Source: Dehalococcoidia bacterium
GTDB lineage: Bacteria; Chloroflexota; Dehalococcoidia; UBA2979
DNA length: 54,992 nucleotides
Direction: 5' to 3'
NCBI GenBank assembly: GCA_050486345.1
Contig: JBJHDC010000003.1
Location: 371 to 55,362 of the forward strand
The notes beneath the pieces were generated by a model, which was given only the letters and a program-made list of their open reading frames with translations, ran no database searches and had not been told where the DNA came from. The position numbers were made by a program, and so were the translations under genes. This document shows positions 3,985 through 54,647 of this stretch, one piece after another (the first letter of the stretch is position 1; each line of letters begins with the position of its first letter).

Positions 3985-4062
3985 GTAGCGATCGGCTAGG
4001 ACTGACGGCATCGGTTGGTGGTCACGTCACGCATCGAGGCCACGCGCAGTTGGGAGGCTCCG

Positions 4063-13880: not shown

Positions 13881-14033
13881 GGCTCTCTCCTCGTGAATAC
13901 GCGGTATCCCGCTACAGGAGAGACGAACGTCTGCCGGTTTTCTTACAGACATGCTCCATGCGTCCGGCGGCACGAGGAAACGACCGTGTTCGCGGCGAGG
14001 AGCCGCCGCGAAGCCTCTCCTTCGAGCAGAGCG

Positions 14034-19213: not shown

Positions 19214-19527
19214 TCATCTCCACCGGGACGCAGGCGAGCACATGGGTGCTCGCGGTGCGCAGTCGCTGGGTGCTTCGACCTCACTCATCGCACCCGCTGA
19301 GCCGCGCGTGCTCACGACTCCGCGATTCATGGGACTTGCTTACCCGCAGCGCCACCCGGCGGTCTCGGGGCCGCGGCCATCGCGAAACACGGGGACCAAG
19401 GCCCCTCCCGGGTGGGACGTAACGCACGTTGCGAAACCACTAGCGCACCTTCACGCTGGTCGCCATGGTCGATGGGAAGTGCTGAATCCTCAGCAAACCA
19501 GTGGACATTCGATCAGAAGAGGCCGGG

Positions 19528-22070: not shown

Positions 22071-22089
22071 GGCTCCCTGGAGGAACCAC

Positions 22090-23313: not shown

Positions 23314-23364
23314 CACTCGCCCGACCAGCACCCGCCCGACCACCACCCGCCCGAAAGGACCCCC

Positions 23365-25079: not shown

Positions 25080-25430
25080 ATGGCTGTAATCTCCATTTCC
25101 GGGCTCGCGAAGGAATTCGGATCCACCCGTGCGCTGGACGGCTTCGACCTCAACGTGGAGTCCGGCGAGGTACACGGTTTCCTCGGACCGAATGGCGCCG
25201 GTAAGTCCACTACCATCCGCATCCTCCTCGGCCTGTTGCGCCGCGATGCGGGTGAGGTGAGCCTGCTCGATGGGGACCCCTGGGACGATGCCGTTCAGTT
25301 ACACCGCCGGCTCGCGTACGTGCCGGACGATGTGCGGCTGTGGCCGAACCTCACTGGTGGTGAGGTGATCGACCTCTTCGGCATGTTGCGAGGTGACATG
25401 GACCTCGATCGGCGCGCGGAGATGATCGAG
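25080..25430 (+). pseudogene. ABC transporter ATP-binding protein (ABC-2/DrrA-like), 5' fragment truncated by an IS remnant
   Basis: Walker [10 protein letters not shown] and the typical N-terminus [31 protein letters not shown] are present. Homology stops at about ...[10 protein letters not shown]. The signature motif, Walker B and downstream regions are absent. Confidence 0.8.
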
Positions 25431-25450
25431 AGCACCAGGTCGGCCTGGGC

Positions 25451-25973
25451 CACGTCGACATCAAGAAGCTGTGGCGCATCCCTGAGGGCGGCGGCTGGCG
25501 TCTGCACGGGCGTGAGCAGGCCCGGACGCAGGCAGCGGGTCGGGAACGCCTACATCCACTCCGCGGTGGATAATCACTCCCGCCTCGCCCACAGCGAGGT
25601 GCTCGGGGACGAGCGACCCGAGACCGCCCTTGCCTTCTGGCCCCGTGCGCTGGACTGGTTCGCCCAGCGCGGCGCACCGGTGCAGCGGGCGCTCACCGAC
25701 AACGGGTCCGCGTACCGCAGCCACCTCTTCAACCAGCTCTGCGTGGCGCGGGACGTGAAGCGCCGCTTCGCCTGCCCCTACCGCCCGCAGACCAGCGCCA
25801 AGGTCGAACGCGTCAACCGCACGCTGCTCGAGGAGTGGGCCAGGCGTGCATCCACCACTTGAACGGGCAAGCACGTCCTGTTCCACGAGTGCAATCATCG
25901 CCGCGGCCACGCCGCACTCGGTGGATTGCCCTCGGTAGGCCGAGTTACCAATGTGCCACCTCAGTACAGCTAG
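25451..25973 (+). mobile_element. degraded IS481-family transposase fragment (DDE/integrase core, N-terminally truncated, one frameshift and one in-frame TGA)
   Basis: Frame 2 reads [21 protein letters not shown]. It shifts near 25530 to [22 protein letters not shown]...[10 protein letters not shown]...[26 protein letters not shown] at 25860-25862 is then followed in the same frame by [35 protein letters not shown]. Confidence 0.8.
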
Positions 25974-39594: not shown

Positions 39595-39924
39595 GAATCC
39601 TCGCTTGCGGAGTTCTGATCCGTTCGTGAGGAACAAACGTAACCGCTCATGACGACGGCGATGTGACCGCTGGCTTTCGTCTTTCAATCCAGGAGATATA
39701 CGTTCTGTCTCACGTCCTGCGTTCGCGACGGTTGCCAAACCCGCCGAGCACTTGCCAGGACCGCGTACCTGCTGATAACCAGTGTCATCGTGTAACCGCG
39801 CGATCCTCGGCGGCTGTCCGAGCCGACCGAGAGACGCACGGTACGTTCGCACGATGCGCAGCCCCAGGTGACAGCGCACCGAAACAGCGACCCGGGACGA
39901 TGCAGGAACGAGGGAACGATTCAG

Positions 39925-41103
39925 ATGAAGCGAAGCGACGAGCGGATCCTGACCACGCATGCCGGGAGCCTGATCCGGCCTGACCTGTTGCTGGACTACG
40001 CAGTGAAGCGGGGCGACGGAGAGACGATCGACGAGAGCGCCTACGAAACGGATCTCTCCGCGGCGGTGTCCGAGGTTGTACGGCAGCAGGCCGAGGCCGG
40101 CGTGGACATCGTGGACGACGGGGAGTTCTCGAAGTCGAGCTGGGGCACCTACATCAATGAACGGGTAACCGGCTTCCAGCCCCAGGCGGGCCGCCCTCTG
40201 CCAATCAACTACCTCGGCCGCGATGTGGAGCGGTACCCGGGCTTCTTCGCAGACTCTCCCTGGGGTGGGGGTACCTCGAGGATGCCCCGTCAGGCGATGA
40301 GCGTTGACGTGTGCGTGGAGCCGATCACCTACATCGGCCACGACCGCCTCGCCCGCGACATCGAGAACATGAAACGCGCCGTGGAGGCTGCGCCACAGGT
40401 CGAAGAGGCGTTCCTCGCGGTGGTCGCTCCTGCCAGCGCCGCCTTTAATGCGTTCAACGAGTACTACGGGACCGAGGAAGAGTACGTCTACGCTCTCGCA
40501 GAGGCGCTGCGGGAAGAGTACCTGGCGATCACGAACGCCGGTCTGATCGTGCAGATCGACGACGCGGTGCTGGCGAACGTGTACGACCACATGATGCAGG
40601 AGGGCGGACGCGAACGGTTCGACAAGTGGGCATGGCTCCGCATTGAAGCGTTGAATCACGCGCTGCGGGATATCCCGGAAGATCGCGTCCGCTACCACCT
40701 CTGCTACGGCAGCTGGCACGCGCCGCACACTGCTGACGCTCCCTTCGAGGACATGATCGACCTGGTGCTGGCCGTGAAGGCGCAGGCGTATTCGATCGAA
40801 GCAGCCAATGTGCGCCACGAGCATGACTGGCGCGTGTGGGAGGACGTGAAGCTTCCGGAGGGGAAGATCCTCATCCCCGGCGTGGTCACGCACCACACCC
40901 TGAGCGTAGAGCATCCTCGACTCGTCGCGGACCGGCTGATCCGCTATGCGAACGTGGTCGGACGCGAGAACGTCATTGGCGGTACCGACTGCGGCTTCGC
41001 CCAGGGAATTGGTGTGGAGCGCGTCCACCCGGAGATCCAGTGGGCGAAGCTGGAGAGCCTCGCTCAAGGCGCGCGCCTTGCCAGCGCGGAACTCTGGGCA
41101 TAG
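39925..41103 (+). CDS. MetE C-terminal-like (Meth_synt_2) Zn alkyltransferase family protein, paralogue of 15823-17046
   Basis: MKRSDERILTTHAGSLIRPD starts at ATG 39925. Putative Zn ligands are YHLCYG, SIEAANV and GGTDCGF. Confidence 0.85.
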   Translation: MKRSDERILTTHAGSLIRPDLLLDYAVKRGDGETIDESAYETDLSAAVSEVVRQQAEAGVDIVDDGEFSKSSWGTYINERVTGFQPQAGRPLPINYLGRDVERYPGFFADSPWGGGTSRMPRQAMSVDVCVEPITYIGHDRLARDIENMKRAVEAAPQVEEAFLAVVAPASAAFNAFNEYYGTEEEYVYALAEALREEYLAITNAGLIVQIDDAVLANVYDHMMQEGGRERFDKWAWLRIEALNHALRDIPEDRVRYHLCYGSWHAPHTADAPFEDMIDLVLAVKAQAYSIEAANVRHEHDWRVWEDVKLPEGKILIPGVVTHHTLSVEHPRLVADRLIRYANVVGRENVIGGTDCGFAQGIGVERVHPEIQWAKLESLAQGARLASAELWA

Positions 41104-41512: not shown

Positions 41513-43087
41513 GTGTTCAAGATTCCTGACGTTGACGAAGTGGTAGCCGTTGCGGCGCAACTTGGCATCACGCTCTCCGCTGATGAGGCTGCGGCGTACC
41601 AGGAAAACGTCGCCGCCCAGCTAAAGATGATGGATGACTTCGTGCAGTCGCGGCTGGAGGAGACCCGACCACCCATGCTCTCGCCGTCGCGCGCCCCCGG
41701 GTATCGCCCCAGCGCGGACGAGGATCCACTCAACGCGTGGACCTGGAAGTGCCGCATCGAAGGCGAAGCGAGCGGACTACTGGCCGGAAAGACGGTGTCA
41801 TACAAGGACCACGTCGCGGTAGCCGGCATGCCGATGAGCATCGGCGCGTTTGCACTCGAAGGCTTCGTCCCTGATTTCGATGCCACGATCGTGACGCGCG
41901 TGCTCGCGGCAGGTGGCACCGTTGTGGGCAAGAACGTCATGAACGGCCTCGCCGGTGGGTTCGGCGCTGGCGGTGGCATCGGAGACTACGGGCGCACGCT
42001 CAACCCCCACGACCACGAGTACGTGACGGGGGGCTCATCCGCCGGGTCGGCCGCAGCCGTGACCGCTGGTGAAGTCGACATCTCGTTCGGTGGTGACCAG
42101 GGCGGGTCGATCCGCATTCCTGCTGCCTGGTCCGGTAACGTCGGCTTGAAACCAACCTTCGGTCTCATCTCGCACTTCGGCGTTGGGTTCGGCACCGATC
42201 AAAGTATCGACTACACCGGACCGATGACGCGCACCGTCGAGGACTGCGCGGCGGCGTTGCAGGCAACGGCCGGGTACGACGGCTACGACCCGCGCCAGGG
42301 CCGAGACGTCCCCGATTCACTCGAGGTCATGTCACTGCTCGACCGCGGCGTCCAGGGCATCCGCATCGGTGTGCTCGACGAAGGATTTGAGGGCGCTGAG
42401 TCTGACGTCAGCGACATCGTGATGAGCGCCGTCGACAAACTCGCTTCGGCCGGTGCGCTGGTGAGCCGGGTCTCGGTCCCGGAGCACTCCACCGTAGGCG
42501 TCGTACAACAAGCGATGATGCCGGAGGGGAGCCGCGCCATCATGGAGACCGGGTTCTTCGGAGCCTTCACCAAGACGTACTACCCAGCAGCGTGGATCAC
42601 CGCAGTGAACAAGCTGTGGGCTCACCAGGCGGATCTGCTGGCGCCGCGCACCAAGTCGGGCATGATCGCCGCGGAGTTCTCTCGCAAGACGTACTACGGC
42701 CAGGTGTACGCAAAGGCACAGAACGTCCGCGCTGGCTTTGTACGCGCGTTCGATGCTGCCCTTGCGGATGTCGATGTCCTGGTGATGCCCACGACACTCC
42801 ACAAGCCGTTCCGTTACCAGCCACCCGCAACCCGGCTGGAAGCCCTCGAAGAGAACTTCAACATGATGAAGCGGGCGGGCGCGACGAACACGATGCCCTA
42901 CAACTTCACGGGCCACCCCGCGCTGGCGGTGCCGGCCGGGAAGTCAGGGAACCTCCCGGTCAGCATGCAACTCGTTGGACGCTACTTCGAGGATCCGCTG
43001 CTGTTGCAGGTCGCCGCCGCGTATCAGCACGCGGTCGACTGGGACAGCATCGTCGGCGTCGGCAGTCGAGTCGCCGTGCCGGCGTAG
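41513..43087 (+). CDS. AmdA-like (enantioselective/aliphatic) amidase, AS family, with an N-terminal helical extension
   Basis: Motifs SYKDHVAVAG, GGSSAGSAAAV and GGDQGGSIRIPAA are present. At about 520 aa, with a 60-70 aa N-terminal extension, it parallels Rhodococcus AmdA from memory. Confidence 0.9.
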   Translation: MFKIPDVDEVVAVAAQLGITLSADEAAAYQENVAAQLKMMDDFVQSRLEETRPPMLSPSRAPGYRPSADEDPLNAWTWKCRIEGEASGLLAGKTVSYKDHVAVAGMPMSIGAFALEGFVPDFDATIVTRVLAAGGTVVGKNVMNGLAGGFGAGGGIGDYGRTLNPHDHEYVTGGSSAGSAAAVTAGEVDISFGGDQGGSIRIPAAWSGNVGLKPTFGLISHFGVGFGTDQSIDYTGPMTRTVEDCAAALQATAGYDGYDPRQGRDVPDSLEVMSLLDRGVQGIRIGVLDEGFEGAESDVSDIVMSAVDKLASAGALVSRVSVPEHSTVGVVQQAMMPEGSRAIMETGFFGAFTKTYYPAAWITAVNKLWAHQADLLAPRTKSGMIAAEFSRKTYYGQVYAKAQNVRAGFVRAFDAALADVDVLVMPTTLHKPFRYQPPATRLEALEENFNMMKRAGATNTMPYNFTGHPALAVPAGKSGNLPVSMQLVGRYFEDPLLLQVAAAYQHAVDWDSIVGVGSRVAVPA

Positions 43088-43133: not shown

Positions 43134-44705
43134 ATGTACTTGATGCCTACCCCACAAGAGATCTCGGAGATCGCAGCATCGATCGGCGCGAACGTAGGAG
43201 AGGAGGAGGCCGAGCAGTACCGCCCGTACCTCCTCGATGTCCTCCGTCTCGTGGATCAGTTTGTGCAGTCACGGACCGAGGAATCACCACCGCCGATGCT
43301 ATACCCGGAGCGCGGCCCCGGGTATAGACCAAGCCTCAGTGAAGACACGTACAAGGCGTGGCTGTGGAAGTGTGCGATTGGCGGCGGTGATACCGGACTG
43401 CTCGCTGGTAAGACCGTGTCCTTCAAGGACCACATCAGCGTCGCCGGCATCCCGCAGGCTTTCACCTCACAGGCCCTCGAAGGATTCATCCCGGACGTCG
43501 ATGCCACTGTGGTCACTCGGGTCCTCGCGGCCGGGGGCAAGGTCGTCGGGAAGCACATGATGAACGGCTTCGTGGGCGACTACGGGATGCCCGCCAACCC
43601 GCACAACCCTGCCCATACCCCGGGCGGCTCCTCGTCCGGGTCCGGCGCAGCACTCGCTGCCGGGGAGGTCGATATCTCATTCGGTGGAGACCAGGGCGGT
43701 TCCGTTCGCATCCCGGCAGCCTACTGCGGCGTTGTGGGCCTCAAGCCTACGTTCAGCCTCATCTCTCACTTTGGAGCAGGCTTCGGTGCTGAGATGACGG
43801 TCGACCACATCGGCCCGATGGCGCGCCGGGTCGAGGACGTCGCCGCGGCTCTGCAGGCAGTGGCCGGGTACGATCCGCTCGATCCTCGTCAGCGACGCGA
43901 AGTCCCGGAGACGCTCGATGCCATGAGCGGCCTCGACGGTGGCGTGAAGGGGCTGCGTATCGGCGTCCTGGACGAGGGCTTCGCGGAGCCGATCGATCCG
44001 CAGGTGGCAGACACCACCATGGAAGCGATACGTGTCCTGGAGCGGGCGGGCGCGGAGGTGACCACCGTTTCCGTCCCAGAGCACGCGCAGGTCACCGCTG
44101 CCTACCAGACCCTGACCCTGGAGGGGCCGCTGGCACTGTTCGATGCGGGTTTCTATGGAGCTGGATACAAGGGCTACTATCCGCAATCCACCATCACCGC
44201 GGTGAGTCGCCTGTGGCACGATCACACGGATCTCCTGCCGGCACGCAGCAAGCTCAACCTCATCGCTGGGGAGCTGGTTCGCCGCACGTACCACGGCGGG
44301 GCCTATGCAAAGGCGCAGAACGCCAGGGCTGGGTTCGTTGCGGCGTTCGACCGAGCCCTGGCTGAGGTGGATGTGCTGGCACTGCCAACCACCAGGTCAG
44401 TTGCTCCAGCGGTGGAACCCGTACCAACGGATCCTCGGCAGTTCATTGACGAGAACCTGGGCAGGAACTGGATCCTGATGCCCGGCGCATACAACACCAT
44501 GCCGACGAACTACACCGGACATCCGGCGTTGGCGGTTCCCTGCGGAAAGGTGGGCGGACTCCCCGCCAGCCTGCAGCTGGTCGGTCGGCACTTCGAGGAT
44601 GCGCTGTTGCTGCAAGCGGCATACGCGTTCCAGCAGTCGGTCGACTGGGAGACATACACCTCCGTGGGGACACCCGTCGGGGAACCAGTAGGAGCGCTAG
44701 TCTAG
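43134..44705 (+). CDS. AmdA-like amidase, AS family, tandem paralogue of 41513-43087
   Basis: Motifs SFKDHISVAG, GGSSSGSGAAL and GGDQGGSVRIPAA are present. AAGGAG lies 7 nt upstream of ATG 43134. The ORF track starts at 42975. Confidence 0.9.
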   Translation: MYLMPTPQEISEIAASIGANVGEEEAEQYRPYLLDVLRLVDQFVQSRTEESPPPMLYPERGPGYRPSLSEDTYKAWLWKCAIGGGDTGLLAGKTVSFKDHISVAGIPQAFTSQALEGFIPDVDATVVTRVLAAGGKVVGKHMMNGFVGDYGMPANPHNPAHTPGGSSSGSGAALAAGEVDISFGGDQGGSVRIPAAYCGVVGLKPTFSLISHFGAGFGAEMTVDHIGPMARRVEDVAAALQAVAGYDPLDPRQRREVPETLDAMSGLDGGVKGLRIGVLDEGFAEPIDPQVADTTMEAIRVLERAGAEVTTVSVPEHAQVTAAYQTLTLEGPLALFDAGFYGAGYKGYYPQSTITAVSRLWHDHTDLLPARSKLNLIAGELVRRTYHGGAYAKAQNARAGFVAAFDRALAEVDVLALPTTRSVAPAVEPVPTDPRQFIDENLGRNWILMPGAYNTMPTNYTGHPALAVPCGKVGGLPASLQLVGRHFEDALLLQAAYAFQQSVDWETYTSVGTPVGEPVGALV

Positions 44706-44726
44706 GACATCAACCTCACACAGGAT

Positions 44727-44768
44727 GCGCGCCGTCGCTGCCCAACTCCTCCGGCGGCGACGGCGCGC
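44727..44768 (+). terminator. GC-rich hairpin after the plus-strand amidase pair
   Basis: GCGCGCCGTCGC (44727-44738) pairs with GCGACGGCGCGC (44757-44768), a 12-bp perfect stem, followed by TTCACGTTGT. Confidence 0.55.
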
Positions 44769-44895
44769 TTCACGTTGTCACGCTGGTCACGCACCCGTTC
44801 AACCCCGGCAGGAGCACGCCCCACCCGATTGGTTTCGTCCTGACGGATGATGATCGAGTGCCATTACCGCGGGCGCGTGTGGCGATGAATGAAAC

Positions 44896-44939
44896 AAACA
44901 GATAGCGGCCCCCGGTACTCCGGGGACCGCTATCTGTTT
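44896..44939. terminator. bidirectional terminator hairpin after the minus-strand amidase operon
   Basis: AAACAGATAGCGGCCCCCGG-tact-CCGGGGACCGCTATCTGTTT has 20-nt arms with one mismatch and A/T tracts on both sides. It lies 28 nt beyond the 44967 stop. Confidence 0.75.
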
Positions 44940-44966
44940 GCCGTCGGTTCGAGCTGCGAGCCCGAG

Positions 44967-46385
44967 CTAGTTTGCGACTGCCTCGGTAGTAGCGAACACG
45001 GGTGGCAACTGCAGGTGCCAGTCCGTCATCTGCTGGTATGCGTCCCCGACAAGAAACAGCGTCGAGTCAGCGAAGGGCTTGCCTACGATCTGAAGCGACA
45101 GAGGCAGGCCATCGCTCGAGAACCCCATCGGAACGCAGAGCGCCGGAAGACCGACGTTGTTCCAGAAGCTCGTGTAGCTGGGAAGCTTGAAGAACGACTC
45201 GGCATTCAGGCCCTCCACCGGAGGCGCTCCATTCCCCGAAGCGGGCGTGAGGAGCACGTCCACCTCGGACATCACTTGCGCCACCTCACGCTTGGCCATG
45301 GAGCGTAGGCGCTGCGTCTGGACGTACTCCCAACCGGTACACAGGGCGCCGCCAATCAGGATGTCCTTCGTGTGGATCCCGTAGAGTTCGCGCCGGCCTC
45401 GGAGGTCGAGGCGGTGATACGCGAAGGATTCGGCACGCGCAGCAACCTGGCTCGCGGCCTGGATCTCCTGGTAGTGCGGGATCGACACCTCAACCACGCG
45501 CGCGCCCGCAGCCTCCAACTCAGCGACTGCTGCCTCGAAGACGTCGCGGACGGCTGGATCTTCAGCAGGGTGGCCGAAGTGGTGTTCACGCTCTACACCG
45601 ATGACCAGGCCCGCGAGCGAGCCATCGAGCGCGGCGACATAGTCCGGTACGTCCACTTCAACCGACGTGAGGTCTGCGGGATCGTGCCCCGCCATCACGC
45701 CGAGCATGATGGCGCAGTCCCGCGCTGAACGGGCTAGCGGCCCGATGTGGTCTCGGCTGTACCCCAGCGCGACGCACCCCGACTTCGGCACGAGGCCGAA
45801 CGTCTGCTTCATCCCCGAGACGCCGCAATACGCGGCCGGGATGCGCACCGAACCGCCGGTGTCGGTCCCCAGGCCGCCAAGGAACAGCCCTGCGGCAATC
45901 CCGGAACCCGTACCCGAGCTCGATCCACCCGGCCAGCGATCGGTGTTCCACGGATTTCGCGGGACCGGGAATGGCTTGCTCGCATCCGGCATACCGATCG
46001 CGAACTCCATCGTGGAGGTCTTCCCGATGATGACCGCGCCAGCCTCCCGCAGGCGAGCAACCACTGGTGCATCAGCGCCCGAACCCCACCAGGGATCGAG
46101 CACCTCGCTCTGCGCGGTGGTGGGGGCATCCTTCGTGGCGATGATGTCCTTCACCCCCAGCGGGATGCCATGCAGTGGTCCGCGATCGATGCCCGCAGCC
46201 AACTCCTGGTCCGCAACCCGGGCCGCAGCGAGTGCGGGAAGGTCCATCCGGGTGAGGTACACGCCGAGGATCGGATCCAGATGGTCGGCTCGCTCAAGCA
46301 TCGTTTCCACGAGCTCAACGCTCGTGAGTGTGCCCGCGCGGATCGCGGCCGCCGCATCTGTGATGGTGAGTGGCAGATCGGTCAC
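44967..46385 (-). CDS. GatA-like amidase (AS family), type I paralogue
   Basis: Start VTDLPLTITDAAAAIRAGTLTS. Motifs GVKDIIATKDAPTTAQS, GGSSSGTGSG and GTDTGGSVRIPAAYCG are present. The GTG start overlaps the upstream stop (GTGA). Confidence 0.9.
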   Translation of the reverse strand: MTDLPLTITDAAAAIRAGTLTSVELVETMLERADHLDPILGVYLTRMDLPALAAARVADQELAAGIDRGPLHGIPLGVKDIIATKDAPTTAQSEVLDPWWGSGADAPVVARLREAGAVIIGKTSTMEFAIGMPDASKPFPVPRNPWNTDRWPGGSSSGTGSGIAAGLFLGGLGTDTGGSVRIPAAYCGVSGMKQTFGLVPKSGCVALGYSRDHIGPLARSARDCAIMLGVMAGHDPADLTSVEVDVPDYVAALDGSLAGLVIGVEREHHFGHPAEDPAVRDVFEAAVAELEAAGARVVEVSIPHYQEIQAASQVAARAESFAYHRLDLRGRRELYGIHTKDILIGGALCTGWEYVQTQRLRSMAKREVAQVMSEVDVLLTPASGNGAPPVEGLNAESFFKLPSYTSFWNNVGLPALCVPMGFSSDGLPLSLQIVGKPFADSTLFLVGDAYQQMTDWHLQLPPVFATTEAVAN

Positions 46386-47791
46386 ACGAGCACCTCCGTT
46401 GCGAGCGACGGCACCCGGAGGTGCCATTCCGTGAGCTGCTGGTAGGCATCACCGATTCGAAGCGCCATTGCGTCCTGGAACGGAGCGGCGGCTACCTGGA
46501 GCGACAGGGGCAGCCCGTCGCCAGTGAATCCCATCGGCGCTGCCAACGCGGGGTACCCGATCAGGTTCCAGTAGCGCGTGAAGTTGGGCGCGAAAAACGA
46601 GGACTCCGACGTGAGGCCCTCGAGCGGAAGCGCTCCGGCACCGGAGGTCGGCGAGACGACTGCATCGAGGTTCGAGAAGAGCTCACTCACCTTGCGGCGG
46701 ATCACGGTCCGTGCGCGCTGCGCCTGAACGTATTCAAACCCCATCACCGCACCACCGAGCTCCAGCATGTGAGCAGTGTATTTCCCGAAGAGCTCCCGGC
46801 GGTGGCGCATGTCGAGCATGTGGTAGGACAACGCTTCGACACGGCTCGTCAGGTTCATCCCGGCCAGTGCAGCCTCGAACTCGGGCAGCTCCACCTCCAC
46901 CAGGGTCGCACCCGCCTCTTCAAGCACGACGAGCGCGGCCTCGAAGACCTCCGCCAGCGCCGGGTCATTGTTCGGGTGGTGCAGGTGGTGGATGCGATCC
47001 ACGCCGATCCGCAGGCCTTCGAGTGACCCGGTGAGGGCATCCGTATAGGCGGGAATCTCTACCTCCGCAGAAGTCAGGTCGGAGGAATCGTGGCCCGCAA
47101 GGACCTCCAGCATGAGGGCGCAGTCGCGAGCGCTGCGCGCCATCGGGCCGATGTGATCCAGGCTGTACCCGACTGGCGTGCACCCGGACTTGGGAACCAA
47201 TCCGAACGTGGGCTTGATGCCGGTTATGCCACAGTAGGCAGACGGGATGCGGATCGAGCCTCCGGTATCTGTCCCGAGCCCTCCATAGAAGAGCCCCGTC
47301 GCAACACCTGAAGCGGTTCCAGAGCTAGAACCGCCGGTCCAGCGCTCAACGTTCCACGGGTTCTTCGGGACGGGGAATGGCTTCTCCGGATCCGGGTTCC
47401 CGCAGGCGAATTCCATGGTCGTCGTCTTGCCAGTGAGCACAGCGCCTGCCTCGCGGAGGCGCTGAGTCACGGGCGCATCAACGTTCTCACCCCAGGACGG
47501 GTCCAGTACCAACGACTGAGCGGTCGTCGGCGCGTCCTTCGTTGCGATGATGTCCTTGATGCCCAGGGGGATCCCGTGCAGCGGTCCACGGTCGTACCCC
47601 TCGGCGAGTTCGGCATCCGCACGGCGGGCCGCGGCGAGTGCCGCCTCATCTCCACGGTGGAGATACACCCCAAGGGCGGGGTCGACGGTGTCTGCCTGGG
47701 CAAGCATCGCCGATGTCAGTGCGACACTCGTCGTATCACCACGCCTGAGTGCTGCGGCTGCGTCGGAGATTGTGCGTGGGAGCTCTGTCAT
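46382..47791 (-). CDS. GatA-like amidase (AS family), type I paralogue
   Basis: Start MTELPRTISDAAAALRRGDTTS. Motifs GIKDIIATKDAPTTAQS, GGSSSGTASG and GTDTGGSIRIPSAYCG are present. ATGA overlap with the upstream gene. Confidence 0.9.
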   Translation of the reverse strand: MTELPRTISDAAAALRRGDTTSVALTSAMLAQADTVDPALGVYLHRGDEAALAAARRADAELAEGYDRGPLHGIPLGIKDIIATKDAPTTAQSLVLDPSWGENVDAPVTQRLREAGAVLTGKTTTMEFACGNPDPEKPFPVPKNPWNVERWTGGSSSGTASGVATGLFYGGLGTDTGGSIRIPSAYCGITGIKPTFGLVPKSGCTPVGYSLDHIGPMARSARDCALMLEVLAGHDSSDLTSAEVEIPAYTDALTGSLEGLRIGVDRIHHLHHPNNDPALAEVFEAALVVLEEAGATLVEVELPEFEAALAGMNLTSRVEALSYHMLDMRHRRELFGKYTAHMLELGGAVMGFEYVQAQRARTVIRRKVSELFSNLDAVVSPTSGAGALPLEGLTSESSFFAPNFTRYWNLIGYPALAAPMGFTGDGLPLSLQVAAAPFQDAMALRIGDAYQQLTEWHLRVPSLATEVLV

Positions 47792-49194
47792 GCTGCCACC
47801 TCCAGGCTGACCGGCGGCACTTCCAGGTGCCAGGTCGTTGTCAGCTGGTAGGCATGAGCAGTGCGAAGCACCGTGGACTCCGCAAACGGCTTCCCGGCAA
47901 TCTGCATCGCGAGGGGCATGTGCGTCTCGTTGCTAAACCCGCACGGCACCGTAAGTGCCGGCTGTCCGGTGACGTTGAACGGGAACGTGAAGATTGGACT
48001 CAACACCAACATGTCCGGCGACATGTCCGCAATCAGGCCAGCCGGTGCCGGAGCGGTGGGGGTGACCAGCACATCCAGGTCGACCATCGCTCGGGCCATC
48101 TCCTTCCGCCAGTAGGTGCGGAAGCGCTGGGCCTGAACGTAGTCGCTGCCGGTGTAGAACGCCCCCCGCGTCAGGGTCGTGCGGGCGAATAGCCCGTAGT
48201 CATCCCGCCGCGTCTGCAGGTCTCCGAGATGGTACGCAAGCGACTCGCAGTGCATGGTGATCAACCCGGCAATCTGCGCCTTCTCTGCGTGCGGAATGAA
48301 GATCTCCTTGACGGTCGCTCCCGCATCGCGCAGGTGGCCAACCGCCGTCATCACCGCTTCTTTCACCTCGTCCGTCGCTGACTCGAACCAGAAATTCATC
48401 GGCAGGCCAATACGGAGGCCCTCCACGCCGGTATCGATCGAATCCAGGTACGCCTCAGTGGGGACATCCGCGGCGAACGGATCCGTCTCGTCGTATCCCG
48501 CAATGACGCTGAGCATGGCGGCGCAGTCCCAGGCGCTCCTCGCGTGGGGTCCGATGTGGTCAAGGCTGTACCCGAGCGGAACGCAACCGGACTTGGGGAC
48601 GCGACCGAACGTGGCCTTGAGCGACGTATGCCCGTTTGCGGCCCCGGGCGCGCGAATCGAACCACCGGTGTCGGTACCGAAGCCGCAATATGCCATTCCC
48701 GCGGAAACGGCGATGCCAGTGCCCGAGCTCGAACCAGCAGGGCTGCGCTCGGGATCCCACGGGTTGCGGGGCATCGGCCACCCCTTCTCGACATCGGGCA
48801 GGCCACAGGCGAACTCGCTGAGGACCGTCTTCCCCAGGTGCACGGCGCCAGCCTCGCGCATCCGAGCTACCACCGGCGCGTCCCAACCAGTGCCCCATTC
48901 CTGATCGAATGCCAGACTGTTGGCAGTGGTGGGTGCATCTCTGGTGGCGATGATGTCCTTCGTGCAGTAGGGAATCCCTTGCATCGGGCCAAGGTCGATA
49001 CCCGCGGCGAACTGGGCATCCGCCGCTGCCGCCTCGGCGAGCGCAGAGTCCTCAGTGACTGCGAGAAACGCACCCAGCTGTGGATTCAGCGCCTCGATTC
49101 TCGCAAGCATCTCTTCGGTGATCTGCGTGCTGGTAAGTGAGCCACCCCGAAGCGCCGCAGCGGCTTCCTGGATAGTCAGTGGGAGATCGGTCAT
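47788..49194 (-). CDS. GatA-like amidase (AS family), type II paralogue
   Basis: Start MTDLPLTIQEAAAALRGGSLTS. Motifs CTKDIIATRDAPTTANS, AGSSSGTGIAVSAG and GTDTGGSIRAPG are present. Confidence 0.9.
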   Translation of the reverse strand: MTDLPLTIQEAAAALRGGSLTSTQITEEMLARIEALNPQLGAFLAVTEDSALAEAAAADAQFAAGIDLGPMQGIPYCTKDIIATRDAPTTANSLAFDQEWGTGWDAPVVARMREAGAVHLGKTVLSEFACGLPDVEKGWPMPRNPWDPERSPAGSSSGTGIAVSAGMAYCGFGTDTGGSIRAPGAANGHTSLKATFGRVPKSGCVPLGYSLDHIGPHARSAWDCAAMLSVIAGYDETDPFAADVPTEAYLDSIDTGVEGLRIGLPMNFWFESATDEVKEAVMTAVGHLRDAGATVKEIFIPHAEKAQIAGLITMHCESLAYHLGDLQTRRDDYGLFARTTLTRGAFYTGSDYVQAQRFRTYWRKEMARAMVDLDVLVTPTAPAPAGLIADMSPDMLVLSPIFTFPFNVTGQPALTVPCGFSNETHMPLAMQIAGKPFAESTVLRTAHAYQLTTTWHLEVPPVSLEVAA

Positions 49195-49236
49195 TGGTAT
49201 CTCGATTCTGATCCGGCACCGGTAGTGCGTTCATAG

Positions 49237-50649
49237 TCAGGCAGGAATGGCAGCCGCGATGGGCGAAACCTCCAGGTGCCACGAGGTCTGCCGCTGGTAT
49301 GCATCCGCGACCTTGAACACGGTGGCTTCAGCAAACGGCTTCCCGACGATCTGCATCGACAGCGGAAGATGTGTCTCTGCACTGAAGCCACAGGGGATTG
49401 CCATCGCCGGTTGACCAGTCATGTTCCATTGCCCCGTGAAGCCGGGTCCGAGCATGTGCGTCCCCGTGTCGATCTCGTCACGCAGCGGGGCCGGTCCCGG
49501 CGAGGTCGGCGTCACCAGCACATCAACTGTGCGCATCACCTGCGCGACGGCACGCTGGAAATACGTACGGAATCGTTGTGCCTGCACATAGTCACTGCCT
49601 GTGAATAGCGCTCCGCGTGTAATCGCCTCTCGTGCGAACTGCCCGTAGTCCGACCAGCGTGAGATCAGGTCCTCGCGGTGAATCGCGAAGGCGTCACACG
49701 CCCAGGTGATCGAGTTCGCTTCCTTCGCCTCTGCCGCGTGTGGAATTGCGACCTCAACAACCTCGGCCCCTGCCTCCCGAAGGACATCGAGTGCACGGAG
49801 TACCGCTGCCTTCGTCTCTGGCTCTGGTCCGGGATTCTCGAAGAAATACTCAATGGGCACGCCAATCCGGAGGCCACTGACATCACCATCGAGCGCTGCA
49901 AGGTAGTCATCGACTGGAACCTGTGCCGCGAACGGGTCGGACTCGTCGTAGCCGGCGAGCACCGAAAGCATTGCCGCGCAGTCCCATGCGCTGCGAGCGT
50001 GCGGGCCGATGTTGTCGAGACTGAATCCCAGCGCCACACAACCCGATTTCGGTACCCGTCCGAACGTCGCCTTGATCCCAGAGTGCCCGTTCATCGACGC
50101 CGGGCCCCTGATTGAACCACCCGTATCTGTCCCCAATCCTGCGAGGGCGAGACCCGCCGACACAGCGATCCCGGTACCGGAACTGGAACCCGCGGCGCTG
50201 CGCTCCAGGTCCCACGGATTCTTCGGAGTCAGGAACCGCTTCGTCGCGTCCGGCAAACCGCAGGCGAACTCGCTGAGAATTGTCTTCCCCAGGAGCACCG
50301 CACCGGCAGCACGCAGACGTGCAACCACCGGGGCGTCGTAACCTTCTCCCCATGCGGGATCGAGCACCACGCTGTTTGCCGTGGTTGGCGCATCTCTCGT
50401 TGCAATGATGTCCTTCACGCAATACGGGATGCCTTGAAGCGGTCCGAGGTCCACGCCTGCCGCGAACCGTGAATCAGCCTCAGCTGCCTCAGCGAGCGCC
50501 GTTTCCGCCGTCACAGTGATGAACGCACCCAGCGTTTCGTTGAGCGCGCCGATCCGCCCAAGGTACTCGCGGGTCAACTCGACGCTGGTGAGGTCACCGT
50601 TGCGAAGTGCCGCAGATGCCTCCTGGATTGTGAGTGGAAGATCACTCAT
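49237..50649 (-). CDS. GatA-like amidase (AS family), type II paralogue
   Basis: Start MSDLPLTIQEASAALRNGDLTS at ATG 50649, with GGAG upstream. Motifs CVKDIIATRDAPTTANS, AGSSSGTGIAVSAG and GTDTGGSIRGPA are present. Confidence 0.9.
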   Translation of the reverse strand: MSDLPLTIQEASAALRNGDLTSVELTREYLGRIGALNETLGAFITVTAETALAEAAEADSRFAAGVDLGPLQGIPYCVKDIIATRDAPTTANSVVLDPAWGEGYDAPVVARLRAAGAVLLGKTILSEFACGLPDATKRFLTPKNPWDLERSAAGSSSGTGIAVSAGLALAGLGTDTGGSIRGPASMNGHSGIKATFGRVPKSGCVALGFSLDNIGPHARSAWDCAAMLSVLAGYDESDPFAAQVPVDDYLAALDGDVSGLRIGVPIEYFFENPGPEPETKAAVLRALDVLREAGAEVVEVAIPHAAEAKEANSITWACDAFAIHREDLISRWSDYGQFAREAITRGALFTGSDYVQAQRFRTYFQRAVAQVMRTVDVLVTPTSPGPAPLRDEIDTGTHMLGPGFTGQWNMTGQPAMAIPCGFSAETHLPLSMQIVGKPFAEATVFKVADAYQRQTSWHLEVSPIAAAIPA

Positions 50650-50701
50650 TGCTGTCTCCTCTAGTCCTTGCCTGCGTCCGACCATGTCGACCGGAACGTC
50701 T

Positions 50702-50890
50702 CTACACCTCGGCTGAGAAGATGAGTGCAGGCTCTTCGTAGCGAGTCTCAGGGAGATAGAGGGAGTCAGCTCCTTCCCGCATCTTCGGGTAGATCCGCTT
50801 GTACATCTCGATCTCTTCTTCGCTCAGGTCTAACCCGGCGATCTCGAGCAACACCCGAACCTGTCGATCAATCTCTGCTTCGCTCAGCAC
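50702..50890 (-). CDS. 62-aa helical protein, GatC/AtzG-like candidate small subunit for the downstream amidases
   Basis: The GTG start has AAGGAG 7 nt upstream. The sequence is (M)LSEAEIDRQVRVLLEIAGLDLSEEEIEMYKRIYPKMREGADSLYLPETRYEEPALIFSAEV. It aligns with the N-terminal extension of the AmdA-like amidases (IGANVGEEEAEQYRPYL). Confidence 0.65.
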   Translation of the reverse strand: MLSEAEIDRQVRVLLEIAGLDLSEEEIEMYKRIYPKMREGADSLYLPETRYEEPALIFSAEV

Positions 50891-50942
50891 TGAAATCTCC
50901 TTCTTCCTGCCCGTTCAGCGGCAATCTTCCTCGTTGCATTGA

Positions 50943-50969
50943 GGGGAGCAGGGCAATGCCCTGCTCCCC
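50943..50969 (-). terminator. GC hairpin between the SBP gene and the small ORF/amidase operon (terminator or attenuator)
   Basis: GGGGAGCAGGGC-aat-GCCCTGCTCCCC, a 12-bp perfect stem. It lies 10 nt after the SBP stop on the minus strand and has no clear U-tract. Confidence 0.45.
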
Positions 50970-50978
50970 AACCGCGCA

Positions 50979-52655
50979 CTAGTCGTCAGCCACCCACACC
51001 TCGGTGAGATCCTGTGACCATGACTGCGCCATTACGAATCCACGAACATTCGGTGCGAGGACGCGGAAATTGAGGTCATGTGCGGTAATGATGAATGGGG
51101 CATCATTCGTCATCGTCGACTGCGCTTGCCTCAGCAACGCGAACTGCTCCTCCAGGTCGAAAGTCGAACGCGCCTGCACGAATAGGTCATCAAACTCGGG
51201 ACTGCTGTAACCGGAAGCGTTGCAGCATCCTCCCGGCGGGATCGCTCCCGTGGTGTAGAACTGCAGACCGAACGTCGTTGGCCCCGTAGAACCGAGCGAG
51301 ATGTGGATCGCGTCGTAATCAGACCACGCGGGGTCACCAAAACCAGCTCGATAAGCCGTAATGATGTTGTTCCACTCGTAGGCCTGGAGTCGTACTTCCA
51401 CCCCGATTGCTGCCAGATCCTGCTGCATCTTCTCGTTCATCGGACCAGGCCACATGTTCCCGGAACCGCCAGGCGGGTACGCGATGGTCATCGTGAACCC
51501 ATCCGGGTACCCGGCGTCTGCGAGAAGCTCACGCGCAAGATCCGGGTCGTACCGATAACCTTCGAACTCTGGATCGAACCACTGATGTCCCGGCGGCACG
51601 TACTGAGCAGCGGGAATACAGAGTCCGCTCAACAGCGCATCGCACAAGCCTTCGCGATCCATCGCGTAGTTCAGCGCCTGCCTGACACGGATGTCATCGA
51701 ACGGCTCCTTGTACGTGTTGAGCTGGTAGGTGATGACATGCGGGTAAGGGTTAAGCAGGATGTTGAAGCCCTGCGCCTCAAGCTGAGCGTACGAATCCGG
51801 CGGCGGTACTTCTGCCCAGTCAATCTGACCACTCTGGAGTGCTGCCAGGCGCGTGGCTGGTTCCGGCATGGGATAGAGGATGAGTCGATCGAGCTTCGGG
51901 CGCCCTCCCCAGTACTCCTCGTTCGCCTCCAGCTCCATCACCTGGCCATCGACATACCGGGTGATGCGGAACGGCCCCGTGCCGGATGCATGCTGAGCGT
52001 ACTCATCGTTGCCGTACTGCATGACAATCGTTGGGCTCGGGATATGGAGTCTGACGAACTCATAGGGCATGAACGACCATACTTCGTAGGTCGTCACCTC
52101 TACTGTGAAGTCATCGATCTTGGCGTAGCTTTCGATCAGATTCACAGTGGCGCTGTTCGCGGACGCACTGATCGGATCGTAATACTCGAAATCACGATTG
52201 TGTATACGATCGAGCTGGAACACGACGGCGTCCGCGTTGAAGTCACTACCGTCATGGAACTTCACACCCTGGCGAAGGTTCAGGGTCCAGGTGAGCTCAT
52301 CGTCGCTGATTGACCATGACTCAGCGAGGCCCGGCCCTGGAACAGCCGCGGAATCAGCGGCGTTCTTCAGGTCCCAGTTGAAGAGAGCGTCGTACACCTG
52401 ATACCCAACGAAACGACCACCCTCGCCACCTTCGGTGGGAGGGGTGTTCGGAATCGGCACGTTCCCGGCGGACATTCCGATACGAAGCGTTCCACCGGAC
52501 CCAGAATCGTCCGTCGCTGCCCCGTTGTCGCCCCCAGAGGTGGGCGGAGCGGTGGCAGTCCCACCATTTCCGCTCCCGGCAGTATCCGAGCTGCCACAGG
52601 CAACCAGCGCTAGCGCGAGGAACGCAGCGAGCCCTAGTAGACTCAACCGTTTCAT
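50979..52655 (-). CDS. ABC transporter substrate-binding lipoprotein, family 5 (peptide/nickel/opine type)
   Basis: Lipoprotein signal MKRLSLLGLAAFLALALVACGSS starts at ATG 52655. The family-5 SBP core includes ...LRIGMSAGNVPIPNT... and WNLRQGVKFHDGSDFNADAVVF. No cognate permease or ATPase genes are adjacent. Confidence 0.85.
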   Translation of the reverse strand: MKRLSLLGLAAFLALALVACGSSDTAGSGNGGTATAPPTSGGDNGAATDDSGSGGTLRIGMSAGNVPIPNTPPTEGGEGGRFVGYQVYDALFNWDLKNAADSAAVPGPGLAESWSISDDELTWTLNLRQGVKFHDGSDFNADAVVFQLDRIHNRDFEYYDPISASANSATVNLIESYAKIDDFTVEVTTYEVWSFMPYEFVRLHIPSPTIVMQYGNDEYAQHASGTGPFRITRYVDGQVMELEANEEYWGGRPKLDRLILYPMPEPATRLAALQSGQIDWAEVPPPDSYAQLEAQGFNILLNPYPHVITYQLNTYKEPFDDIRVRQALNYAMDREGLCDALLSGLCIPAAQYVPPGHQWFDPEFEGYRYDPDLARELLADAGYPDGFTMTIAYPPGGSGNMWPGPMNEKMQQDLAAIGVEVRLQAYEWNNIITAYRAGFGDPAWSDYDAIHISLGSTGPTTFGLQFYTTGAIPPGGCCNASGYSSPEFDDLFVQARSTFDLEEQFALLRQAQSTMTNDAPFIITAHDLNFRVLAPNVRGFVMAQSWSQDLTEVWVADD

Positions 52656-52662
52656 CGGATGT

Positions 52663-52764
52663 AATCGATCGATTCGGGACGTGACCACGCGTATCCTCGC
52701 CTCCATTGAACTGTTTCGAGTGAACACAATCGAAACTAGAGGCGTCGCGTGATCGATCGGTCAC
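52663..52764. promoter_or_regulatory. cluster of palindromes upstream of the SBP gene; candidate operator sites
   Basis: Three elements: AATCGATCGATT (52663-52674, a perfect 12-bp palindrome); GTTTCGA-n10-TCGAAAC (52713-52736); and GTGATCGATCGGTCAC (52749-52764, a near-palindrome sharing the GATCGATCG core). Confidence 0.35.
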
Positions 52765-52928
52765 GGAGCAATGAAGATTGCGGGTCGCTCGGGCTACTCG
52801 CCAATCTCACTTCTGCATGCAAACGGTTGCAGGATTACTTCAGGTAGCCCTTTGGTTGTTCGCTGTTGCTATTCATGGGGCTCCTCATTACGGAGGGCCG
52901 ACAGCAAGCATCGAAGCGCCTTGGGACA

Positions 52929-54647
52929 TTACTGAGGTATCGGTGGCCGCGGATCGGACCCACGCGGGGGATCCTCCTCGTCATCGCGAGGGTCAGGTTC
53001 GCGCGGCGGTTCCGGCTCTCGCGTTGGTGCGGGTGTTGGCGTGGCGGTGACTGTCGCCGTCGGTGTGGCCGTGGGCGTAATCGTCGGGGTTACGACGGGG
53101 GTCGGCGTCGGTGACGGGCTCGGTGTGGGACTGGGTGACGGACTAGGGGTTGCGGGCGGCGTAGGCGCCGGCGTGGGCGGCGAGGGAGGAGCGATGCCCG
53201 GTGCGGGCGTGGGCGCTGCTGGCGGACTCGATGGATCCGCGAAGCCATTCGAGGGCCCCGTGGGCTGGCCCCCCGAACCTGATGGCTGGGTGAATCCGCC
53301 GATGGTTGGCGTCGGTGAGGGGGAGAAGCTCGGGTCCAGGAACCCTCCGATGGTCGGAGTGGGGACCACGGGTGTCTCGCCAACGGGCGTCTCAGTCGCT
53401 GGAGTTGGCGTCGTTGTGGTGATGCCGATCGGTGCGAGGTCCCCGCTCGGCGGGGAGACGGCGCCGCCACCGCCCGCATCCGCCCCGGCGCCCCATGGAA
53501 ACAGCCCAAGGAAGAACGCGGCGACCAGCGCGCCAAGGTACGGCACCATGCCATCCCACTGCCCGTGATGGCCCTCAGAACCTGCGGTATCGACCGTCCA
53601 GGCCCCGGCATCCTGTGGCGCAGCTCCGTCATCGGCGGCCTGCGTGCCAGCGAGGTCCAGACCGACAGCGGCAAGTGGCAGCGTCCCGCCGCTCACGGCC
53701 CTCGGCGCTCCACCACCGTGAATCACACGCGAAAGCCCGGGGATCCGCGCGAGCCCAGACGCGGCCCCTGTCGTCAGTGGCGCAAGACCACCCGTCGCGG
53801 TTCCGGCACCGGTGACTCCACCCGCTCCACCGGCCGTACCTGCTGCAGGGCTACCACGAGCTACCCAGCCAACGATGCGCCGGAAGAGTCTGGCACGGCG
53901 TCGCTGACGACGGTCACGCACACTTCGGATCGCGGTGCGCACGACGAAGGCGAATCCGAGGACCGCGATGAGCATCGCGGCGGCAGGCAGTAGGGCCCAG
54001 GAACCGAGAGCCCGTCCCTCCCTGAGCTCACGTGCGATCAGCCCGCTCATCAGCACCGCGATCCCGACACTCAGCAGCAGAGAGAGCGCGACCAGCACCC
54101 ACCACGTCGCGCCTGCGGTTGACCGGCGCGCGTGCCGCCGCCGGCGTTCCCACGGGGCGGTGTCCTGCAGGCGACCTGTCGCAACCTGACGCAGTACCAC
54201 CAACGGGACCGCGTCGAGGAGCGGCGGTCGTGGCGACGCACGTTCACCCTTCCATGGCCAATGCAGTCCCGAGATCCGCGCGGAGACCCGCTGGCCAGAC
54301 GCCGTTCGCGCGAACAGCGCCCAGCCCTGCCCGACCACGATCGCCGAGGCGAGCGTCAGCATCGCGAGGCGGAGCCACTGCAGGGATTCGAGGTCGCCGC
54401 GTACCTCGACCGCCCCACGGATACCGACCACCAACGCAACGATCGCGAGCAGTCCAAGCGGGAACAGGAGGTAGGTGAGCCGGCTCATGAGCGGCACGCG
54501 TGCCACCACCGGCTCTGAGGCTGCCCAGTCAGGTCGCCATTCGGTTGCTTGGCCGTCCGTCCGCCAGCGATGCATGAGGTCATCAGCAGTCAGGCCCTCG
54601 AAGGCCAGGCCGTCTGTGCGGGGATACCCAGGCGAGGGGGCGTTCAT
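52929..54647 (-). CDS. polytopic membrane protein with an Arg-rich loop and a long Pro/Thr/Ser-rich C-terminal tail
   Basis: 572-aa ORF with at least 5 hydrophobic segments. It has an RDRRQRRRARLFRR loop. The C-terminal roughly 190 aa are PT-rich, with PTPTIGGF repeated twice and the tail ending in an acidic/Pro stretch. Confidence 0.6.
   Translation of the reverse strand: MNAPSPGYPRTDGLAFEGLTADDLMHRWRTDGQATEWRPDWAASEPVVARVPLMSRLTYLLFPLGLLAIVALVVGIRGAVEVRGDLESLQWLRLAMLTLASAIVVGQGWALFARTASGQRVSARISGLHWPWKGERASPRPPLLDAVPLVVLRQVATGRLQDTAPWERRRRHARRSTAGATWWVLVALSLLLSVGIAVLMSGLIARELREGRALGSWALLPAAAMLIAVLGFAFVVRTAIRSVRDRRQRRRARLFRRIVGWVARGSPAAGTAGGAGGVTGAGTATGGLAPLTTGAASGLARIPGLSRVIHGGGAPRAVSGGTLPLAAVGLDLAGTQAADDGAAPQDAGAWTVDTAGSEGHHGQWDGMVPYLGALVAAFFLGLFPWGAGADAGGGGAVSPPSGDLAPIGITTTTPTPATETPVGETPVVPTPTIGGFLDPSFSPSPTPTIGGFTQPSGSGGQPTGPSNGFADPSSPPAAPTPAPGIAPPSPPTPAPTPPATPSPSPSPTPSPSPTPTPVVTPTITPTATPTATVTATPTPAPTREPEPPREPDPRDDEEDPPRGSDPRPPIPQ

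Follow-up and report, generated by a model that had tools for sequence, protein, structure and literature searches.

The 54,992-nucleotide (nt) stretch of Dehalococcoidia contig JBJHDC010000003.1 analysed here, which in its full length is referred to as the window, carries on its minus strand (44895-52655) an operon that consists of a gene for a solute-binding lipoprotein (solute-binding protein, SBP), a 12-bp hairpin, an open reading frame (ORF) of 62 amino acids (aa), four amidase genes (A, B, C and D, in this order) and a terminator-like hairpin. Our main finding is that the 62-aa ORF probably encodes a non-catalytic 'belt' subunit of the GatC/AtzG type for the GatA-clade amidases encoded behind it. 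The likeness of this ORF to GatC and AtzG had been proposed in the original prediction, and it was borne out by remote profile homology, by the predicted fold of the protein and by the conserved linkage of its gene to amidase genes. The gene order described there, including the SBP gene, the hairpin, the 62-aa ORF and four full-length amidases, was recovered in the ORF list, in the Pfam matches and in the sequence itself.

The relationship to GatC and AtzG was detected at the level of profiles. By profile-profile comparison with hhalign, the small family, represented by 117 sequences, was aligned with either 67 AtzG-like sequences or five GatC sequences from solved structures, and 100 column shuffles as well as reversed alignments served as controls for the scores. 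The comparison with AtzG gave a Prob of 62% and an E-value of 7.6e-5, with 65 colinear columns that extended from end to end. Its score of 27.7 compared with a mean of 10.5 for the shuffles (standard deviation (sd) 2.8, maximum 21.0) and with about 9 for the reversed alignments. Similarly, the comparison with GatC, in which residues 7-54 of the small protein were aligned to GatC residues 5-52, gave a score of 27.1 (Prob 48%, E 1.8e-4; shuffles 9.6 ± 2.1, maximum 16.6). AtzG and GatC scored only 13.0 against each other in an equal test. Since the small family scored about 27 against both of them, it lies between GatC and AtzG in profile space. A shallower AtzG alignment of 16 sequences gave a Prob of 37%, and the family profile produced no significant match when compared with single sequences, namely AtzG and the N-termini of two plus-strand amidases that are discussed below.

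The predicted structure of the small protein led in the same direction. When provided with the family alignment, AlphaFold2 modelled the protein with a predicted local distance difference test score (pLDDT) of 94.1, with two helices (residues 4-18 and 24-43) and then an extended tail. In a Foldseek search with this model against 350,542 PDB chains, ranks 1 to 9 were all occupied by GatC or AtzG, with template modelling scores relative to the query (TMq) of 0.58-0.68. The GatC chains were 3h0l_C, 3kfu_G, 3kfu_J, 9a62_B, 2f2a_C, 2df4_C, 2dqn_C and 4wj3_C, and the AtzG match, 6c62_C, reached a TMq of 0.68 and a score relative to the target (TMt) of 0.65 over 60 columns. As far as can be judged from the model, the protein would possess the features of a GatC/AtzG-type small subunit, which are two N-terminal helices plus an extended segment that can be superposed. 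The profile and Foldseek comparisons of the 62-aa protein with GatC and AtzG were therefore in agreement, both revealing a resemblance, and the shuffle controls remained far lower.

The 62-aa ORF (50702-50890, minus strand) codes for an acidic protein and begins with a GTG codon, which is preceded by GAAGGAG at a spacing of 6 nt; the strong AAGGAG ribosome-binding site ascribed to it earlier is indeed present. Ten close homologues with 48-92% identity were found in public data, and these share a near-invariant C-terminal half (YPxMRxGADSLYxPExRYEEPALIFSA). A profile built from the ten homologues led to 290 clusters (50%-identity representatives), nearly all of which are 56-100 aa in length. 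The ratio of nonsynonymous to synonymous substitution rates (dN/dS) of the small ORF was 0.08 relative to the homologue in locus L004 and 0.14 relative to that in L009, these being the two nearest relatives, with dS values of 1.2-1.6. Because of these ratios the reading frame is regarded as being under purifying selection, and we conclude that the 62-aa ORF is a genuine gene, conserved and maintained as a protein.

Judged by sequence models, this protein appears to represent a separate, unannotated family that belongs to neither the AtzG-like nor the GatC family of Pfam. The small ORF gave no match to the AtzG-like family PF13318 at E ≤ 1, and PF13318 was absent from the 25 families most matched by the 117 family members; in a control, AtzG of pADP-1 matched this model at 7.9e-9. 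The Pfam GatC model (PF02686) was matched neither by the small ORF nor by the 117 members, and in the complete Pfam scan of these members no family was matched by more than five of them. Among longer proteins, P0048, P0079 and P0088 (133-135 aa) combine the N-terminal half of the small family with a conserved C-terminal part of about 65 aa that ends in FGVMLAGGE(R/H). Natural fusions of the small protein to an amidase were not found among the longer profile matches, the C-terminal domain of these three proteins being a different one. A further candidate member, P0047 (339 aa), was rejected as a false positive that arose from the translation of repeats.

The four genes behind the small ORF all encode members of the amidase signature (AS) family, with PF01425 matches at E 1e-95 to 1e-105 over 419-421 residues. 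Amidases A (49237-50649, minus strand; 470 aa; PF01425 E 1.5e-101) and B (47788-49194, minus strand; 468 aa) are of type II and 65% identical to each other. Amidases C (46382-47791, minus strand; 469 aa) and D (44967-46385, minus strand; 472 aa) are of type I and 61% identical, and between the two types the identity is 48-54%. A motif check of all four sequences agreed with the previously proposed II-II-I-I arrangement and its distinguishing motifs. Furthermore, the Lys (in KD), the cis-Ser (in GSSSG) and the nucleophile Ser (in GGS(I/V)R) are retained in each of the four amidases, none of which looks dead. The two translational couplings noted before were also found in the sequence, where the ATG of C overlaps the stop codon of B (ATGA, 47788-47791) and the GTG of D overlaps the stop codon of C (GTGA, 46382-46385).

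With 269-288 bits, the amidases remained below the cut-off of 481 of the GatA equivalog model, and with 241-297 bits they remained below the cut-offs of 426-461 of the AtzE models (TIGR02715 and NF006631). The solved structures nearest to the type II amidase were six GatA chains (best 1.9e-80), followed by AtzE, and for the type I amidase D again six GatA chains were on top, with AtzE in twelfth place. No solved AS enzymes other than GatA and AtzE are known to depend on a small subunit of this sort. Going by these scores, the amidases appear to be GatA-clade hydrolases in their own right and equivalogs of neither GatA nor AtzE. In a neighbour-joining tree of the window paralogues and the amidases of relatives, the II/I split was located at the base of all Chloroflexota loci. 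In this tree, A grouped with the amidases of L004 and L009_12878, B with L009_15876, C with L009_17237 and D with L009_18643, and the identities to the L009 orthologues amounted to 74% for B, 67% for C and 74% for D. Since every one of the four window paralogues is matched by a separate orthologue in L009, the A/B and C/D duplications are older than the divergence from this closest relative. The two rounds of tandem duplication assumed in the original prediction were thus upheld by the tree, with the refinement that the II/I split is old and common to Dehalococcoidia loci; the tree indicates an old II/I duplication, and then lineage-specific duplications of each type.

The gene neighbourhood of the small family provided the third line of evidence. 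A scan of one genome per species with the ten-sequence alignment yielded 28 loci, nearly all from metagenome-assembled genomes (MAGs) of Chloroflexota (Dehalococcoidia, Tepidiformaceae and 'Chloroflexia'), with one locus from Acidimicrobiia and one from Gemmatimonadota. The conservation of the 62-aa ORF beside amidases was checked in these and more distant relatives and held in 36 of 36 readable contexts: in each of them the small gene adjoins a co-oriented gene for a GatA-clade amidase, both gene orders occur and overlaps are common. A small gene without an amidase neighbour was not seen in any of these contexts. In all 30 readable Chloroflexota-type loci it is a type II amidase gene that lies directly 3' of the small gene. 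The small stop codon and the amidase start are -4 to +67 nt apart in 29 of the 30, the exception being the fragmented locus L010 with 135 nt, and in 15 loci the two genes overlap or are separated by at most 7 nt. The commonest operon is DppD-(SBP)-DppB-DppC-DppF-small-amidase II, to which a type I amidase is added in about one third of the 30 loci, always farther downstream. The nearest locus, L009 from a Tepidiformaceae MAG, encodes a small protein with 79% identity and amidases with 66-75% identity to those of the window. In this locus (L009:10001-20186; JBPPMX010000205.1), DppD-SBP-DppB-DppC-DppF and one small gene are followed by at least eight tandem amidases, three of which are A-like, two B-like, one C-like and two D-like, with the last one cut by the end of the locus.

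In six more distant contexts (the second cluster of L014, L037/L038, L039, L040, L041/L042 and the Nonomuraea locus L044) the order is reversed, with the small gene directly downstream of a GatA-clade amidase gene, which it overlaps or from which it is a few nt away. The amidase is nearest to type I in four of these six. In the 'Chloroflexia' MAG (L014:16568-19833, minus strand), where this cluster is a divergent second copy of the module on one contig, two amidase genes are followed by a small gene that overlaps the amidase stop codon and whose product shows 40% identity, and then by two SBP genes. In the cultured actinomycete Nonomuraea gerenzanensis (L044:2983-4662; NZ_LT559118.1, about 5119106-5120785), the gene for an amidase that is 56% identical to C/D is followed, 27 nt on, by that of a 66-aa member of the small family, which was matched by the family hidden Markov model (HMM) at E 4.6e-25. 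The PLSDB table contains no feature at the site of this small gene, and the Nonomuraea pair is a possible experimental model. Since both gene orders occur, and since there are pairs without Dpp genes nearby, the linkage follows the amidase and not the transporter.

Conceivably, the one small subunit could serve all four paralogues. In favour of a shared subunit, partners of this kind accompany each of the two amidase types somewhere in the family, and the small gene is the only one here, a second copy being absent from a six-frame search of the window with the family HMM. A point against sharing is that the conserved Chloroflexota neighbour of the small gene is always of type II, and the protein might instead be the partner of the adjacent type II lineage only (A, perhaps B), with the type I amidases C and D acting alone. 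The regular position of type II directly behind the small ORF in 30 of 30 loci would fit such a restriction, as would the presence of type I in only about one third of the loci, at a greater distance, and the fact that types I and II are merely 48-54% identical. However, in L037-L039, L041 and the Nonomuraea locus L044 the small-family members are paired with type-I-like amidases that have 54-57% identity to C/D, which argues that type-I-like enzymes use such a partner elsewhere. Moreover, type I is equally GatA-like as type II, and the genes for C and D are tied to the same operon by translational coupling. We therefore consider it unlikely that the small protein is confined to the type II enzymes.

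Several observations weigh against the interpretation of the small protein as a belt subunit of the GatC/AtzG type. The hhalign probabilities were only moderate (48-62%), and the single Foldseek E-values were 0.4-1.1, so that the structural argument is one of rank enrichment. Nothing meaningful was found when the single 62-aa sequence was compared with Pfam, NCBIfam and, by phmmer, PDB, or when the 10- and 117-sequence family profiles were compared with PDB by hmmsearch; matches of the small ORF or its family to MsrA_helical (0.12), to an NHLP family of NCBIfam (0.048) and to EF-hand repeat proteins were at noise level. In addition, the operon has one small gene for four amidases, and if each of the four formed a strict 1:1 obligate complex with its product, the small ORF would have to be translated at a much higher level. 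Lastly, the hairpin between the SBP and small genes and the missing permease genes make the transcript structure and the link to transport less certain in this genome. As to the weak Foldseek E-values, these would be expected for a non-globular chain of 62 residues, and the rank enrichment obtained with the model would not plausibly arise by chance.

On the basis of the missing Pfam, NCBIfam and PDB sequence matches to GatC or AtzG, the likeness to these proteins could be regarded as coincidental, and the small protein could be a small helical accessory factor of the Dpp system, a regulator or an NHLP-type precursor of a ribosomally synthesized and post-translationally modified peptide (RiPP). 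The small gene does directly follow dppF in many loci, and the weak NCBIfam match just mentioned is to an NHLP-clan leader family. Nevertheless, we regard a coincidence as very improbable: GatC and AtzG account for every one of the nine best structural matches, the scores against the two family profiles exceed those of the shuffles by 6-8 sd, pairs of small gene and amidase without nearby Dpp genes are found in L037, L044, L015 and L026-L029, and both gene orders occur. With respect to a RiPP precursor, there are no RiPP maturation genes in the operon.

The proposed role of the small protein as a belt subunit is conceptually foreshadowed by AtzG. In Pseudomonas sp. ADP, AtzG and AtzE constitute the 1-carboxybiuret hydrolase, an obligate heterotetramer in which AtzE is insoluble without AtzG and which is thought to be derived from GatCA; ABC transporters and further amidases have been reported alongside atzG-atzE-atzH clusters (PMC6219798). 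As in AtzG-AtzE (6C62), the gene for a non-catalytic helical protein of about 65 aa immediately precedes, and is coupled to, that of a hydrolytic amidase derived from GatA. The predicted fold of the small protein superposes on that of AtzG with the scores given above, and the most conserved tails of the two families align (EEPALIF in the small family, ELAEIYR in AtzG). Unlike AtzG, the small ORF does not match PF13318, and the amidases of the window, which score under the AtzE-family cut-offs, cannot be assigned to an AtzDGEHF or atzG-atzE-atzH cluster. The operon comprises only the SBP gene, the small ORF and the four amidase genes, whereas AtzH (NTF2-like), AtzD and AtzF are absent. The hosts differ as well, AtzG being found in Proteobacteria and the small family in Chloroflexota and Actinomycetota. 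Also in contrast to AtzG-AtzE, one small gene heads one to eight or more tandem amidases of two types, and in part of the small family the small gene is located downstream of the amidase gene. In the literature searched for GatC-like amidase partners, only AtzG and yeast GatF were found, and for hydrolytic amidases none beyond AtzG. New in the present locus are a distinct, unannotated small-protein family, a different host range, the setting in a Dpp-type operon and the one-to-many ratio of small gene to amidase genes.

With GatC of GatCAB (2DF4, 3H0L, 3KFU and 4WJ3), the small protein shares the N-terminal two helices and loop, including the LARL.LS.EE and VEP regions; eight of the top nine Foldseek chains are GatC, and the partner enzymes are nearest to GatA. 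On the other hand, GatC has a length of about 95-100 aa compared with 62 aa for the small protein, which is without the C-terminal ~40 residues of GatC. In GatCAB structures, the C-terminal part of GatC contacts GatB. Since the small protein is without this GatB-holding part, its complex would be a plain hydrolase rather than a tRNA-dependent amidotransferase. Nor do the other features correspond to GatCAB: a Pfam match to GatC was not obtained, the GatA score is under the cut-off, a GatB-like ORF was not found in the window, and the context is one of uptake and catabolism rather than translation. Although GatA chains are the solved structures nearest to the amidases, and although the match of the small protein to GatC covers residues 5-52 of the latter, we attribute a negligible probability to the idea that the small ORF and an amidase are the true GatC-GatA of a tRNA-dependent amidotransferase with GatB encoded elsewhere, given the 269-288 bits against a cut-off of 481, the missing C-terminal residues, the lack of GatB in the window and the pairing with one to eight or more paralogues inside Dpp-type uptake operons.

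If the 62-aa protein is a belt subunit, its translation would precede that of the amidases and would start from the operon's strongest ribosome-binding site. By analogy with GatC and AtzG, its two N-terminal helices and the invariant tail RYEEPALIF might wrap the nascent amidase and keep it soluble and assembled. The operon as a whole would be the catabolic end of a Dpp-type uptake system, in which the lipoprotein SBP binds a small peptide-like or amide-bearing nitrogen compound that is then imported. The tandem paralogues would de-amidate the imported compound, and their divergence would widen the range of substrates. That peptide-like or amide-bearing compounds are taken up is suggested by the similarity of the SBP to HbpA and DppA, together with the Dpp genes in relatives.

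The SBP gene (50979-52655, minus strand) encodes a DppA/HbpA-like family-5 solute-binding lipoprotein (PF00496, 3.1e-89), with HbpA and DppA as its nearest solved relatives. The longest ORF extends to 52727, but the most plausible start is the ATG at 52655, from which the predicted N-terminus reads MKRLSLLGLAAFLALALVAC with the lipobox LVAC. The SBP is 70% identical to the one inside the Dpp operon of L009. It had been described as an orphan without permease or ATPase, and this applies to the window, where an Opp/Dpp permease or ATPase gene was not found within the 55 kb. It does not apply to most relatives, in which a full Dpp-type ABC transporter is located in front: DppD-B-C-F precede the small gene in L001, L009, L011, L013, L014, L016, L018, L019, L021-L023, L032 and others. 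An SBP-small arrangement without permeases recurs in L004, L010, L020 and L024. The orphan state of the SBP is therefore restricted to this locus and a few others, and the missing permease and ATPase are a local peculiarity.

The G+C hairpin reported between the SBP gene and the small ORF (50943-50969, minus strand) lies 10 nt 3' of the SBP stop codon. It was verified in the sequence as a perfect 12-bp stem with a 3-nt loop (GGGGAGCAGGGC-ATT-GCCCTGCTCCCC). It has no U-tract and was not flagged in the terminator scan. A strong hairpin right after the SBP stop codon is also present in L004, L010, L020 and L024, each time with a different sequence. The SBP message may therefore have a conserved stem-loop at its 3' end, which might act as a stabiliser or as a partial terminator.

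The window contains seven AS amidases, as counted in the original prediction, since three further PF01425 genes are located at 4015-5523, 41513-43087 and ~43134-44705. The latter two, on the plus strand, are of the PRK07235/RhAmidase type (NF005565, 456-485 bits) and have N-terminal extensions of about 55 aa (41513-41680 and 43134-43300). In a six-frame search of the window, these two genes were the second- and third-best matches of the small-family HMM. A model of the extension, based on a two-sequence alignment (pLDDT 76), has the same helix-helix-tail topology as the small protein, and its ten best Foldseek matches are headed by RhAmidase 3a1k and also include AtzG and five GatC chains. The extension scored 21.4 against the GatC profile (shuffles 10.2 ± 2.0), and its relation to the small family was weak (hhalign 16.1; HMM E 0.015-0.22). 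The counterpart of the extension among known enzymes is the N-terminal alpha-helical domain of the Rhodococcus sp. N-771 amidase (3A1K), and in enzymes of this type the element is covalently fused rather than encoded by a separate gene. According to the models, the window may thus hold one GatC-like element both in trans and fused in cis.

In two Streptomyces plasmids (NZ_CP109451 and NZ_CP139046), 'hypothetical proteins' of 68 and 74 aa are encoded at L045:2808-3014 and L046:2790-3014, where each gene shares 14 nt with the beginning of an amidase gene whose product is 39% identical to amidase A. These proteins lie outside the small family and gave weak matches to AtzG/GatC HMMs (E 0.08-0.4). 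They may represent another divergent family of GatC-like partners.

A more general view would be that a GatC-like element is needed by GatA-clade amidases at large, provided either in trans (GatC, AtzG, the small family and perhaps the L045/L046 proteins) or in cis (the RhAmidase-type N-terminus), and that in Chloroflexota a single trans subunit is the shared hub for four to eight or more paralogues of two types. We put this forward tentatively, as something possible rather than probable.

As for the remaining features of the operon, the start sites of two amidase genes were refined. The ORF list gave extents of 49237-50685 for amidase A and 44967-46427 for amidase D. Judged by homology, the most likely start of A is the ATG at 50649 (MSDLPLT, with GAGGAG upstream) instead of 50685, and that of D is most likely the GTG at 46385 (VTDLPLT, with GGAGG upstream). 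Between the end of the operon and the convergent plus-strand amidase gene there is a 20-bp hairpin with the T-rich tail TTTCATTC behind it (44895-44940, minus strand), which resembles an intrinsic terminator. A scan of 44600-53100 for sigma-70 promoters found none, and an Rfam search of the window gave no match. The gene immediately preceding the SBP gene (52929-54647, minus strand) codes for a membrane protein of 572 aa whose long C-terminal tail is rich in Pro, Thr and Ala.

Elsewhere in the window, an arginine deiminase pathway cluster (19501-24369, plus strand) comprises genes for an amino-acid (carbamate) kinase, a DcuC-family carrier, arginine deiminase and ornithine carbamoyltransferase. 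A single ORF (25080-25862, plus strand) joins a truncated ABC ATPase domain and an rve integrase core, which is probably due to the insertion of an insertion sequence into an ABC transporter gene. For two paralogues of about 410 aa (15823-17046 and 39868-41103, plus strand), the catalytic domain of cobalamin-independent methionine synthase (PF01717) was the only match. Around them are genes for major facilitator superfamily transporters, for a family III CoA-transferase and for a member of the enolase superfamily, a neighbourhood that suggests a paralogue-rich catabolic region. The sole Pfam match of a 1041-aa protein (10848-13973, minus strand) is a single EF-hand.

Biocatalysis and bioremediation make wide use of AS amidases as targets of enzyme mining, and these are routinely expressed alone. 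The AtzE precedent has demonstrated that an overlooked ORF of 68 aa can decide the solubility of the enzyme. Our findings indicate a second family of small partners, which is invisible to annotation, as there is no Pfam or NCBIfam model for it and its members are listed as 'hypothetical protein' or lack a gene call. Its members stand next to GatA-like amidases in Chloroflexota, and at least one cultured actinomycete has such a pair too. As it lies between GatC and AtzG, it helps to trace how the core of the transamidosome was repeatedly turned into catabolic hydrolases. In Dehalococcoidia-related bacteria, the tandem arrays in Dpp-type operons, with four to eight or more amidases following a single small gene, suggest that diversified paralogues are used to scavenge organic nitrogen. 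If a single small protein is indeed the shared hub for these paralogues, this would be a one-to-many small-subunit economy of a kind not described for the amidase family.

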